Positions 1 through 4,026 of a DNA stretch of 4,026 bases are shown one piece after another. The DNA lies in contig JBEQAY010000045.1 of the NCBI GenBank assembly GCA_041640075.1, forward strand, positions 1 through 4,026, read 5' to 3'. Position 1 is the stretch's first letter. Each line of letters starts with the position of its first letter. Source of the DNA: Candidatus Nanohaloarchaea archaeon (GTDB taxonomy: Archaea; Nanohalarchaeota; Nanosalinia; Nanosalinales; Nanosalinaceae). The position numbers were made by a program.

Positions 1-3000
1 CAAGTTCTCCCTGTGCATTGGTTCTCCTGGCACGTCGGTCTCTTTCTGCCTCTGCCTGTGCCGCCATAGCTCTCTCCATCTTCTCTGGCAAGTTAATGTT
101 CTGAATCTCTACGTCGAGAACCCTTACGCCGAATGAATCGGTTTTTTCATCCAGTTTCTCCTTTATGTGGTCGCCGATCTCATCTCTTTTCTGAAGCAGG
201 TCGTCCAGTTCTCTTTTTCCTACCTGATCCCTGAGGATCGAGGTTGCGTAGTTCAGGGTCTGTGTCTTGTATTTTCCTACGTTTACTATGGAATCTTTCA
301 CGTCGTCCATGTTGTCTTTTACCTCGAAGAAGACCACTCCGTCGACTTCTACAGGTACGTTGTCTTTTGTGATGGCTTCCTGTTTCATGACGTCGACTGA
401 TTCCTCGTAGACCGGGACGGTCACTGCTTTCTCTATGAAAGGTATCTTGAAGTGTATACCTGATTTTCTGCTGCGCGTGTAGCTTCCGAACCTTAGGACG
501 ATGCTTCTCTCCCATTCATCATTGACGAAGAACGGCAGAGGCCCTGAGAAAGATAGACCCATCTATTGATTCACCTAAGAAGGTTCTTGTGAAGAATTTC
601 TTTTATCTCTGTGCATGAGTACGGAACATCGTTAAATCACTCGGCTTTCCAGAACTCTCCATGGGCACCGCTGTCAAGGAATTCAAGGAGAATGCAGAAA
701 CGCTGGAGGAAGGTCTCAGCAACAGTGTCTACGCCTCCGAGGACAGGGTGCTCAAGGTTTACACTTACTTCCCGTTCACAAGTATCTACGCCACCTTCCT
801 GGAAATTGTAAACGGCGATATAACCTATATCTCCAGAAACGACAGGATGAACGTGGAAGAGGAGATAGTTGAAATAATCAGGGATTCGGGTTTTAGATGC
901 CCTGAAATCCTGGAGAGAGCTGACAACTACATAATATTCGAAAGAGTTCCCGGAAAGTCAGGCTACGAGCACCTGAACACATGTACACCGCAAGAAGCTG
1001 AAGAATTTGGAGAAGAAGTCAGAGATTTTCTGGAAAACCTGCATGGACACGGAACCGCGCTCCGGGACAGCAGAGTCTCAAACTTTATCGTCGACGCGAA
1101 CGAAGTTTACAGTATCGACCATGAATACGCAAGTCTTGAAGCCGGCAGATTCTTCAGTTTTATAGACGAGTTAACAGTTACCTCCAGCGCACGGCAGACG
1201 GATAGATACCTTGAATTCGTACATGGATTTCAGCCAGGCACTTTTATCCGGATCCTCTCAGTCTTCATGGCTATCTACCACACAGTGTTCTTCGAGAGAA
1301 GTCTCACCCGGTTAAACCGGATATTCGGGAGTTTGAAGAGTGACCTTCAGGAAAGATAAAGAATTAACAAGTAGACTGGATAAATTACAGTTATGATAGA
1401 CTTTGATGATTCGACTTTGCTGGTCACGTGGGGGATCACTACCCTTCTTGGCTGGGCTGCAACCGTTGGAATGGGCATTCAAGGACTGAGTGGAGGAAAA
1501 GTGATGGCCGTATGGTCAGTACTCATGGCAGCACCTATTTTGATGACTGTGAAGCTGTACTATGAGGGAGATTCAAACAAGCTGTTCAACTTCTGGGCAG
1601 TAGCCGTCACGGTGCTGATGGTTGAGAACTTTTTGACACCGGACAGTATCGCACTCTACAGCTTCTTCCACCTGTGGTATGTTGCAGGAGCAGCAGGATT
1701 CTACTACACAAGCAAGAAGCTGCCGCCACCTTCAGACAGTACGTACAGGTACGCAGCCGGTCTCTCAGTAGCAGGCCTCGCAGCAGTGATTTACCAGCCT
1801 CTTCTGGCAGCTCCTCTTGGAGTTGTACTGCAGGGCGGACCGATGATCTACGACTGGTACACCGTCCACCGGTAAAAAATAATTTCCTTTTTTCTTTATT
1901 CTCCAAGTTCCTCAAAGGCAAAGTTAAACCGCCCTGTTCTGTGAAGAGCCATACCTAGACCTAGGGCAACAATCACAGGTACGATATTCAGGTAGTACAG
2001 GTTGATAATCCCCCAGAGGAAGACAAAGCTTACCATGTCGTCAAGCATGTAATCTTTTTCGCTAAGCCTCTTTTTCAGTTCTTCAAGATTCAAGCTGTAC
2101 TCCATGACTAGGACTGCGACCGCTCCGGATATAACCCAGCCTGCGAAGTTTGAAAGCGGCACACCGTAGAAAAATCCTTCGCTGTACTGCCAGATGCCGA
2201 GTGAGACGGCTGCCGGATCCAGAACCAAGTCGATCAACAGGATAACCACAAGAGTCAGAAAAATCCTCTTGAAGAAAGACTCTACATCGAACAGATTTAC
2301 AAGCAGGTAGCTGTTGACCACGAGAGGGATGAAAAACACCGGCAGGCCGACCGGAACGCCCTGTATCATCGGACCGAGCTCGACCAGGTACTCGAAGCTT
2401 CCGTAGGGCCAGCCTGTCTTCAAACCCACAAACTCTATGAAGTAGGCGTACAGGCTCAGCAAAAGTATTCCAAAACCTGCCCTCCTGTCGATGAGAGGTC
2501 TTAAACCTGCTATCAGCGGCAACCGCATCACCAAAGTGCCGAAAAGAATCATAAACGGGCTGAAAGCCAGAAAACCCGGAACAAGATTTTCCGCCGATGC
2601 GATAAATCCAATTGCTCCGACAAGCGGAAATATAACTGCTATCGTGAAGCGGTTTCTCTCTACAAATTTTTCCAGGTCGAACTCACGCATTGAAGAGCAC
2701 CCAGAGACCGTAGAAAGTTATCACGAAACCTGTAAAGGCGTTGATGAACGGGAACCACCAGTAAGCCCTTGAATCATCTAGTTCCAGCATGAAAACGGCT
2801 GTAGACAGTGCCGGATAGATAAGGAACAGAGCTCCAAGCCTCAGGTCATGAAGACCCATGGAAACCGCCGAGAAAATCCAGACAGCTGTCACGTAGCCGT
2901 AAGCCCCGATCCTGCCCAAGTAAGTAGCGGTGGTCTTTATTCCAGCTTCTCTATCTGGCTTTATATCTGGAATTGCGGAGAAGGTGTGCATAGCCATCGT

Positions 3001-4026
3001 CCAAAGCCAGGCACCTAAGATAACAGTGAGAGGTGGGAGACTTCCTGATAGGTAGCTAAAAGTTATCAGGAAGGGCATTGCGTAAAGACCGTTGGATATA
3101 GAGTCCATGAATGGCTTAGTCTTGAACCTTAGAGGTGGAGCGCTGTACTGGTAGCTAAGACCGAGGAAAAGAAGCATCAAGGGATAAGTCCTTTCAGGAA
3201 GCATCAGAGCCACAGGAATCGCAATCGCGGATGAAAGACCTATCAAACCATCTACAAGCATCGAAGAACTGTACCTGACTTCCTTATCCTCCTTCTTCGG
3301 GTTTTCCTCGTCTACATCCCTGTCAAAGAAATCATTGATTCCGTAAAGCATGATGTTTGCAGGAATCAGGAAGTAGAGAAGGATCAACAAGTTTTCAAAA
3401 GTTAGGAGGTTTTCAGGGCTACTGGCGCCGTAGACAAGTCCAAGTATAGCTGGTCCTGCCAGGTAGAGCCAGAACCTTGGTCTTGAGAGCTTGAAAACGT
3501 ATTTCAGCTCATTCCAGATCTTTGACCACCTTTTCTGCGACGTGTTCGCCGCTTATCAGGCACATCGGCATCCCTATACCCGGGTTGGTGTACTGGCCGG
3601 TGTAGTACAGATTTTCCATATTTTTCGAGCGCTGTTTCGGCCTGAAAACTGATGTCTGCCGGAGCGTATGGGCGATGCCTAGTGCTGTTCCGTTAAAGCT
3701 GTTGTATCTTTCCTTGAATTCCTCTCCTGCAAAAATTTTCTCGTACTCAATCCTGCCTTCGAGGTCCGTATCTGTATTTTCTTTCAGGTCTTTCAGCACC
3801 AGTTCCCTGAATTTTTTTCTTTTCTCTTCGTCAAGCTCGAGTTCTGCGGCAATAGGTACAAGTATGAATATCGCTGATTTTCCCTCTGGTGCGACAGATT
3901 CATCGGTTTCCGACGGGTTGCAGATGTAGTAAGCCGGGTTTTCAGGTATGCTTGGATCCTCAAAGATCTTGTCGAAATGCTCGTTCCAGTCCTCAGGCAG
4001 GACCAGGGTGTGGTGGTCAAGATTGT

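Follow-up and report, generated by a model that had tools for sequence, protein, structure and literature searches.

Described bacterioruberin gene clusters and their relatives

The bacterioruberin gene cluster of Haloarcula japonica, reportedly described by Yang et al. in 2015, is the closest known counterpart of the locus analysed here. In the passages of PMC11946383 that deal with this cluster, c0507-c0506-c0505 encode CrtI/CrtD, LyeJ and CruF. In the nanohaloarchaea Ca. Nanohalovita haloferacivicina and Ca. Nanosalina, Reva et al. (2023, PMC10266531) described a crtD-crtB-idsA operon, remarked on its patchy presence and read it as synthesis of a squalene monolayer; the main text contains no mention of lyeJ, cruF, carotenoid or bacterioruberin. 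NCBI names a CruF in Ca. Nanohalovita haloferacivicina (P0262). Among Patescibacteria (CPR bacteria), lyeJ, crtD and cruF were reported by Haro-Moreno et al. (2023, PMC9948471). The closest copies outside DPANN were the crtB-crtD-lyeJ-cruF sets of two Halobacteria genomes, G077 and G100 (CrtD 73-74%, CrtB 61-63%), whose proteins carry the NCBI label 'Halorutilales archaeon' (P0049, P0153, P0311).

The window, which is the whole 4,026-nucleotide contig C45, comes from a 0.98-Mb genome (G000) that is 89% complete. Its assignment to the Nanohaloarchaeota (DPANN) was confirmed by sequence comparison: the best-matching named CruF, CrtD and CrtB records are from Ca. Nanohalarchaeota, Ca. Nanosalina and Ca. 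Nanohalovita, and the archaeal RpoB' is common to its family. The locus shares with that of H. japonica three orthologues in the same order, overlapping genes and matches to the curated CruF and CrtID models. It differs in belonging to a DPANN symbiont in which no mevalonate pathway, isopentenyl diphosphate (IPP) isomerase or archaeol synthesis was detectable, in a divergently placed crtB of another subfamily, in having one desaturase only and in being known from genes alone. With the published nanohaloarchaeal operon it has three genes and the lineage in common. Like the Patescibacteria, its bearer is a host-dependent cell with a small genome, whereas the patescibacterial genes are bacterial, from cold fresh water and mostly unclustered, and those studied here form a halophile clade akin to the genes of the likely hosts. 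G077 and G100 share the divergent crtB/crtD layout of three nanohaloarchaeal genomes (G018, G033 and G010), but are free-living-type genomes of about 2 Mb.

The pathway chemistry is already known and the nanohaloarchaeal member is what is new; it is less surprising because crtD-crtB-idsA and the CPR genes were already in print. Taken together, the results make it likely that a native, vertically inherited pathway for C50 carotenoids of the bacterioruberin series exists in this host-dependent nanohaloarchaeon, and production of such a pigment is predicted.

Gene content of the window and of the linked contig

The features of the locus are as follows.

661..1359, plus strand: kinase-like gene with weak Bud32 similarity, which adjoins cruF in G037 and G038 as well
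1393..1875, plus strand: gene for an uncharacterised 160-aa membrane protein
1896..2690, minus strand: cruF, bisanhydrobacterioruberin 2'',3''-hydratase, 264 aa (NF041333, TIGR03460, PF04240)
2683..3519, minus strand: lyeJ, lycopene elongase/1,2-hydratase of the UbiA family, about 278 aa (PRK12875)
3509..4024, minus strand: 3' part of crtD, bifunctional phytoene desaturase/3,4-desaturase of the CrtID family, 171 codons (NF058655, 246.3 bits)
3900..4026, no strand: 127-bp end common to C45 and C24, an exact match that joins the window to the 5' part of crtD
C24, from 1088 downwards: 5' part of crtD, 321 codons (NF058655, 548.1 bits)
C24:1139-2125: flippase-like gene, linked to the window through the 127-bp overlap
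C24:2190-3008: crtB, linked in the same way
C3:3503-4279: IdsA/CrtE-like prenyl synthase (PF00348, 161 bits)

The preliminary description had placed cruF, lyeJ and part of crtD in the window, and the family models bear this out. CruF scored 349.9 bits with NF041333 (CruF_Halo; curated cut-off 300) and 191.5 with TIGR03460 (cut-off 154.7), and PF04240 also matched. LyeJ reached 369.5 bits with PRK12875 (cut-off 205) over residues 2-274; no model named LyeJ was among the matches, and it was assigned by PRK12875, gene position and motifs, SRPRFWLYLAGP and both Asp motifs being conserved with Halobacteriales. Amino-acid identity to the sampled Halobacteriales loci was 40-57% for CruF and 46-53% for LyeJ, which agrees with the values given earlier for the H. 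japonica enzymes. Transcription runs crtD-lyeJ-cruF, so that what had been taken for the start of crtD is its 3' end, with the 5' part on C24. The ATG of cruF and the stop of lyeJ overlap by 8 bp.

LyeJ had been called as 222 aa, with the remark that its start may lie upstream. The remark proved right and the length did not: homology and purifying selection extend to the crtD stop (pN<pS at residues 4-43), giving about 278 aa. No ATG, GTG or TTG was found in the frame upstream of 3390 in G000, and a standard start codon is also lacking in G036, G040 and G039. The start is probably the ATC at 3517-3519, within the 3' end of crtD.

The overlap between the ends of C45 (4 kb) and C24 (17.7 kb) was confirmed as exact: C45:3900-4026 equals C24:1-127, which is the only other match of C45 across the genome. 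Shared 127-bp ends of this type occur in 21 contig pairs of the assembly, which identifies the overlap as an assembler overlap rather than a repeat. The crtD frames meet in register, residue 1 on C45 being residue 322 on C24; the total of 492 aa is by arithmetic, the two halves having been scored separately. The flippase-like gene and crtB reported on C24 were both found again.

The membrane protein gene adjoins the cluster in 7 of the 9 genomes that bear the set and is a candidate accessory gene. No NCBIfam or Pfam family matched it, the Atlas held no family for it, and look-alikes of a homologue there were unnamed archaeal clusters. That the kinase-like gene belongs to the cluster is doubtful. 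A scan for sigma-70 promoters and terminators, with a model ill suited to archaea, gave results at chance level. A look-up of RNA data for the cluster of a relative found none, and three RNA runs over 17 kb gave a single contig of 229 bases, outside the cluster.

A single desaturase of the CrtI/CrtD family

The lack of a separate crtI had been taken to mean that the pathway might be incomplete. This does not hold, because the desaturase is of the bifunctional CrtI/CrtD family, so that no separate crtI would be expected. NF058655 (bifunctional CrtID; cut-off 640) scored 722-752 bits in all eight full-length relatives, and the two halves in G000, scored apart, gave 548 and 246 bits. One crtI-family gene was found per genome in 9/9 set-bearing genomes, including two assembled as single contigs, and a search of these genomes for a second crtI found none. 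In the part of PMC11946383 on the mutants, C0507 by itself brings back bacterioruberin in the double mutant, so that one enzyme performs both desaturations. The same paper regards E. coli as a poor choice for expressing these salt-adapted enzymes.

Phytoene synthase and prenyl synthase

'Haloarchaeal-type', as the set had been called, is apt for crtD-lyeJ-cruF and not for crtB, which is only 26-33% identical to the crtB of Halobacteriales. CrtB matched PF00494 above its cut-off with both Asp-rich motifs intact, scored 80-91 bits with the curated phytoene-synthase models (all below cut-off), and by its sequence belongs to a non-Halobacteriales subfamily. It is present in 8 of the 9 set-bearing genomes; the contig of the ninth stops beside the cluster.

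Synthesis of squalene-type lipids, as put forward for the cultivated nanohaloarchaeon (PMC10266531), would fit with HpnD (presqualene diphosphate synthase) being the top NCBIfam score of CrtB, and with best solved-structure matches, at low scores, that include CrtM/dehydrosqualene synthases beside phytoene synthases. The three Hpn models nevertheless stayed below their cut-offs (HpnD 136.5<278.6, HpnC 96<250, HpnE 48<283), TIGR01559 did not match CrtB, and tblastn of G000 with the squalene-synthase-like protein of G024 gave no match. In the operon lyeJ and cruF follow, and neither of them takes part in making squalene. Other nanohaloarchaea carry a separate family that scores best as TIGR01559 (3/3 scanned), and this type of crtB is the only one found in G077 and G100, adjoining crtD-lyeJ-cruF in G077. 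In three genus relatives a crtY-brp module lies near a rhodopsin gene (intact in G040 and G037, with the cyclase in two frames in G036); since crtY and Brp need lycopene, this module points to lycopene. A squalene product is therefore very improbable.

The prenyl synthase was also below every cut-off of the GGPP-synthase models (126-159 bits) and has a Gly five residues ahead of the first Asp motif; a crtE-like gene adjoins crtB in G033, G018 and G010. Placement of CrtB and CrtE outside the curated families, the small residue in CrtE, and the flippase-like and membrane protein genes accompanying the cluster would suit the same enzymes making another end product, namely a C45/C50 intermediate or a glycosylated or longer-backbone carotenoid (for example if the prenyl synthase made C25 units or the divergent CrtB took them as substrate). 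We regard this as unlikely: the enzymes that form bacterioruberin have close orthologues in LyeJ, CrtD and CruF, and the crtY-brp module implies ordinary C40 lycopene. The -5 rule for GGPP synthases has known exceptions, and the haloarchaeal synthase in L084 also has a small residue at this site.

Supply of isoprenoid precursors

The isopentenyl phosphate (IP) kinase and two polyprenyl synthases reported for G000 were recovered, the former with 152 bits against a cut-off of 120. The IP kinase occurs in 7/9 set-bearing genomes versus 1/41 set-free genomes of the family, six of the seven being from one genus; it was not found in G033 (single contig) or G010. The reported absences of HMG-CoA reductase, GHMP kinase, PcrB, CarS and rhodopsin were reproduced in G000, which is 89% complete. 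Among five genomes searched, G000 included, HMG-CoA reductase and IDI-2 were found in none and IDI-1 in none above cut-off, so that no IPP isomerase was found in any, and a GHMP kinase was found in one (G018, among aro genes). A NUDIX protein of G033 scored as IDI with 47 bits against a cut-off of 127 and was not counted. Because neither mevalonate enzymes nor an isomerase were found, the precursors would have to be imported; the missing isomerase, together with the lack of an IP kinase in G033 and G010, means that this would apply to both C5 isomers.

Family tests thus support the earlier statement that a DPANN genome lacking the mevalonate and archaeol steps carries a bacterioruberin-type set; the set is real, with corrections concerning the end of crtD, the length of lyeJ, crtI, the IPP isomerase and a second UbiA gene, which is MenA-like by best match and split across C7 and C46.

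From C5 prenyl units of the host, entering either as isopentenyl and dimethylallyl phosphates activated by the IP kinase or directly as diphosphates, the IdsA/CrtE-like synthase would form GGPP and CrtB would form phytoene. The single desaturase, in its CrtI role, would then produce lycopene. Two rounds of C5 elongation and hydration by LyeJ, 3,4-desaturation by the same desaturase in its CrtD role and a final hydration by CruF would lead to bacterioruberin, which would photoprotect and stiffen a membrane otherwise made of host lipids.

The enzymes might instead finish or repair lycopene, anhydro-bacterioruberins or GGPP that reach the cell with host membrane, with little flux from C5 units. 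The lack of an isomerase, and of the IP kinase in two genomes, would agree with such remodelling, as would the wholesale recruitment of host lipids by nanohaloarchaea and the occurrence of cruF without the rest of the set in G020 (single contig) and G013, and broken in G021, indicating that a genome can retain a late enzyme while lacking those of the early steps. Yet every genome with the full set has retained crtB and crtE, in linkage and under purifying selection, which argues against import of carotenes, where both would be idle. We consider remodelling improbable, and synthesis from C5 units the better reading.

Distribution and evolutionary history

Nine of the 70 genomes sampled from the phylum, belonging to four genera, carry the set. 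It was not found in the other 61, which indicates that the pigment is dispensable. Our counts agree with those given earlier for CruF (5/5 in the genus, 10/49 in the family); at E<=0.001 the family count is 12/49, with one marginal and one broken. In G011, precisely cruF-lyeJ-crtD-crtB are missing, whereas the two genes bordering them in G010, of the same genus, are present. The gene set is under strong purifying selection (dN/dS 0.02-0.06 for G036 versus G040; synonymous sites are saturated versus G000).

Within the genus, the Crt trees showed the same branching as RpoB', with G010 outside in both. CruF, in a quick tree search, and the concatenate placed the nanohaloarchaeal copies in their own clade, separate from all Halobacteriales sampled. 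By these trees, the copies form one old clade that follows the species tree, with no recent acquisition from a host. A sister relationship to Halobacteriales, seen with FastTree, was not retained, as in the mixture-model tree the clade falls among Halobacteriales whose branching order is unresolved.

A binning artefact, or recent and unassimilated host DNA, might be suspected from the small size of C45 and the slightly raised GC3 (0.54-0.64 for the four genes, against a genome mean of 0.49 +/- 0.065). The tie to the larger C24, the separate clade and the GC of C45 (0.477, within the 0.43-0.49 of all G000 contigs) speak against this, as does the GC3 of 0.75-0.91 in Halobacteria crtD (4 loci). 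The occurrence on two single-contig genomes and in nine genomes overall refutes an artefact, leaving this explanation a negligible chance.

The copy of G077 and G100, a two-genome haloarchaeal family (Halorutilales), nests within the nanohaloarchaeal clade in all trees. Nanohaloarchaeal monophyly was not rejected by the AU test (CrtD p=0.052; CrtD+LyeJ+CruF p=0.061; CrtB p=0.077), and with p of 0.05-0.08 a transfer from symbiont to Halorutilales was dropped as an established fact. We infer that crtD-lyeJ-cruF was gained once, long ago, from the haloarchaeal lineage, was combined with a crtB of another subfamily, was handed down vertically with many losses, and was probably transferred onward to one Halorutilales lineage.

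Implications for nanohaloarchaea

Nanohaloarchaea are thought to draw all their lipids from the host. In the portion of 10.1101/2023.12.06.570485 on bacterioruberin, the sole nanohaloarchaeon whose lipidome is available acquires little of it (0.2% vs 1.2-2.9% in the host), pointing to selection against the host pigment. More tentatively, one lineage of DPANN symbionts may tap the C5 pool of the host for a C50 pigment of its own, and some of its species also for the retinal of xenorhodopsin, as the sole remaining isoprenoid end products, and the pathway may later have moved, in an unusual direction, from symbiont to the free-living G077 and G100, in which no other copy was found; this wider proposal is possible rather than probable.

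The crtD-lyeJ-cruF-crtB set corrects the published squalene reading and, in three genomes, the associated module offers a retinal source for nanohaloarchaeal xenorhodopsin. Should one fifth of the family produce pigment de novo, symbionts would differ in whether they control membrane rigidity and photoprotection. Small phosphorylated precursors would have to enter the cell, which would offer a way to probe the host-symbiont junction, and symbionts would add to the red pigment of brines. These predictions are testable, as the genes are present in a cultivated species and it is feasible to construct pigment-null Haloferax hosts.

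Gene content of the cluster

The three late enzymes of the set are, judged from sequence, members of the haloarchaeal bacterioruberin-pathway families. In the G000 assembly (979,576 bases, 58 contigs), the cluster lies on contigs C45 and C24 as follows:

C45:1393-1875, 160-aa membrane gene
C45:1896-2690, minus strand, cruF (curated haloarchaeal model NF041333, 349.9 against 300)
C45:2683-3519, minus strand, lyeJ (UbiA family; PRK12875, 369.5 against 205)
C45:3509-4024, minus strand, crtD (crtI family), last 171 codons
C24, crtD, first 321 codons
C24, strand opposite to crtD, flippase-like gene (TIGR00374, 91 against 43)
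C24, strand opposite to crtD, with the flippase-like gene, crtB (PF00494 gene)

The crtD piece overlaps lyeJ, which in turn overlaps cruF. The first 127 bases of C24 are identical to the last 127 bases of C45, and because 21 contig pairs within the assembly share their ends in this way, the identity is an assembly overlap. The coordinates on C45 in the preliminary description were correct, but the window had been said to hold the start of crtD, whereas it carries the end of the gene. A Band 7/SPFH protein truncated by the contig start (window 2-562, minus strand) is a cluster neighbour in the comparison genome G037 too.

No in-frame ATG, GTG or TTG was observed near the conserved N-terminus of lyeJ in G000, G036, G040 and G039 (window 3505-3519; crtD/lyeJ junctions of L018, L022 and L175). 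The lyeJ start of relatives is a TTG within the end of crtD, and the same site reads TGG in the window; at the junction an ATC or ATT codon, which follows an AGGTGG stretch by 6 bases, precedes the TGG. The beginning of lyeJ would be either a rare start codon or part of a frameshifted crtD-lyeJ fusion.

Completeness of the pathway

From C5 diphosphates onward, the predicted pathway is complete. It had been suspected to be incomplete for want of a crtI, a gap that falls away: all full-length desaturases of the relatives (8/8) passed NF058655, the model of the bifunctional phytoene desaturase/3,4-desaturase (722-752 against 640), and no separate crtI is required, because the H. japonica crtD orthologue C0507 alone gives bacterioruberin back to a colourless double mutant, according to PMC11946383. 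The two crtD halves of G000 scored 548 and 246 on NF058655. Purifying selection acts on each of the four genes, with dN/dS of 0.02-0.06 between G036 and G040; in comparisons against G000 the synonymous sites are saturated.

CrtB retains both Asp-rich motifs. In G018 (L021:6800-7609), the second CrtB motif has Gly for Asp (NFLRG), which may reflect a harmful substitution or an error in the sequence. An IdsA/CrtE-like synthase is encoded at C3:3503-4279 in G000 and adjoins crtB in G033, G018 and G010; since it passes none of the curated GGPP-synthase models and Gly occupies its chain-length position, we infer its C20 product from gene context. A second polyprenyl synthase (480-510 aa) is located between gatA and gatB in G000, G038, G033 and G020 (L167:1553-2992, L168, L169, L178).

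Precursor supply

Precursor genes were surveyed in five set-bearing genomes (G000, which is 89% complete, G038, G033, G018 and G010), and the haloarchaeal or methanogen positive controls were matched. HMG-CoA reductase, CarS and type-2 IPP isomerase were found in 0/5, as was type-1 isomerase over the cut-off, while GHMP kinase was found in 1/5 (G018, amid shikimate genes by locus reading) and GGGP synthase in 1/5 (G033). The GGGP-synthase-family gene of G033 (L182:1801-2631) is over the cut-off, and a geranylgeranyl-reductase-family gene and a cis-prenyltransferase gene are adjacent on C24 (L177).

Isoprenoid precursors would have to be imported and, as no isomerase was found, both IPP and DMAPP would come from outside. 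IP kinases accept both monophosphates. The IP kinase noted earlier in G000 was confirmed by its model (152 against 120); G033 and G010 are without one and would need diphosphates or GGPP. IP kinase was present in 7/9 set-bearing genomes versus 1/41 family genomes without the set, a weak co-occurrence because six of the seven carriers belong to one genus. The flippase-like gene (5/9 loci) and the 160-aa membrane gene (7/9) are putative importers, as candidates only. A second UbiA gene, split across C7 and C46 (L180:1-552, L179:2-463), is probably not a DGGGP synthase; its C-terminal half matches MenA best, far below the cut-off. This MenA-like prenyltransferase is encoded by an organism regarded as non-respiring.

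Distribution among nanohaloarchaea

The nearest named records were Ca. Nanohalarchaeota, Ca. Nanosalina and Ca. Nanohalovita. A single-copy crtI-family gene over the cut-off was found in 9/70 genomes of the phylum, namely 6/6 of the genus of G000 and one genome in each of three other genera; two of the nine are single contigs (completeness 95% and 99%). The earlier doubt about binning contamination is ruled out by the set on single-contig genomes, by G+C and by trees. CruF matches occurred in 13/50 family genomes, comprising these nine, three with cruF alone and one marginal. The cruF-only genomes are G020 (single contig; L019:9052-9852), G013 and, in pieces, G021 (L024:4333-5508, L025:4175-5142); no lyeJ orthologue was found in the three, where UbiA matches reached only 30-33%. 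Their CruF, grouping with the nanohaloarchaeal clade, might hydrate host-derived carotenoids.

PF00494 matches were found in 12/70 genomes: eight of the nine set-bearing genomes, the ninth having a contig that stops beside the cluster, and four others, three of which were scanned and all scored best as squalene synthase. Squalene-synthase-like genes of a family distinct from the cluster crtB are located in G020, G024 and G055 (L170:2302-3414, L171:3532-4680, L172:3118-4155).

Lycopene cyclase and Brp genes

Intact lycopene-cyclase and Brp genes were located at or near a rhodopsin gene in G040 and G037, and likewise near rhodopsin in G036, with the cyclase split in two frames.

L238:2535-5040; L237:3112-5616; L249:1058-2842, lycopene cyclase and Brp loci in the three genus relatives

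Brp was found in two of nine nanohaloarchaeal genomes searched (G036 and G037), G040 being added by locus. It was not found in any of three rhodopsin-bearing genomes without the cluster, nor in G018 despite cluster and rhodopsin; in G000, no rhodopsin, crtY or brp was found. These cyclase and Brp genes are the strongest independent hint of lycopene. The rhodopsin, which we take by lineage to be a xenorhodopsin, lies beside or near them, and it is possible that a DPANN archaeon supplies its own retinal.

Evolution of the cluster

Halobacteriales CrtB shares 26-33% identity with nanohaloarchaeal CrtB, whose next relatives (about 50%) are named Thermoplasmatota, Brevinematales and Nitrososphaeria; the cluster is therefore a mosaic. 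Among 201 Halobacteria genomes sampled, nanohaloarchaeal-type crtB was found in two, G077 and G100, a two-member family with NCBI protein names of Halorutilales. Their crtB and crtD are only of nanohaloarchaeal type (L084:7837-12072, L085, L086).

In a mixture-model tree of 50 CrtD rows picked from 137, the nanohaloarchaeal type formed one clade (100/99), whose position among Halobacteriales the model does not settle; the sister position given by FastTree was not retained. In a quick tree, the CruF sequences, orphans included, grouped together (99) and separately from 30 Halobacteriales rows; a tree of the three genes concatenated (23 rows) gave such a separate clade as well (100/100). Presence of the set needed four changes when mapped on an RpoB' tree that covered 46/50 family genomes (four with split genes omitted). 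Within-genus branching agreed between the RpoB' and three-gene trees, with G010 outside in both. In G010 the four genes are enclosed by an aldo-keto reductase gene and crtE; its congener G011 has these two flanking genes, and exactly the four are missing from between them. This history is best accounted for by an old gain and many losses. Exchange among nanohaloarchaea is also possible, because CrtD and CrtB of G033 group among the genus of G000 and the two congeners of G033 are without the set.

Whether built from CrtD, CrtB, CruF or the concatenate, the trees place the G077 copy inside the nanohaloarchaeal group, and its divergent crtB/crtD layout is that of G018, G033 and G010. Monophyly of the nanohaloarchaeal copies was not rejected in any of three AU tests (p 0.052, 0.061 and 0.077), and a transfer from symbiont to haloarchaeon is favoured, short of proof.

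Relation to previous work

Reva et al. 2023 (PMC10266531) interpreted the crtD-crtB-idsA genes of Ca. Nanohalovita haloferacivicina, Ca. Nanosalina and two MAGs as squalene synthesis; the NCBI label on nanohaloarchaeal CruF is already that of a carotenoid protein. In the sections consulted, Haro-Moreno et al. 2023 (PMC9948471) described Patescibacteria with lyeJ/crtD/cruF, Ding et al. (10.1101/2023.12.06.570485) a nanohaloarchaeon depleted in bacterioruberin, PMC13195033 inferred most carotenoid pathways to be absent from the ancestors, and PMC9258230 handled CruF as a Halobacteria family. The consulted parts of PMC10443357, PMC10134839, PMC9907078, PMC3198991, PMC8359394 and PMC12650772 do not attribute bacterioruberin or retinal synthesis to nanohaloarchaea, nor did our literature search find a paper that does, subscription papers, including the group's first genome paper, being outside its scope.

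The nanohaloarchaeal set is real and probably functional. It resembles the haloarchaeal bacterioruberin pathway in its working and in the families of the three late enzymes, but differs in having a different crtB and no C5 supply of its own. The set gives a known pathway a new host and a corrected reading.
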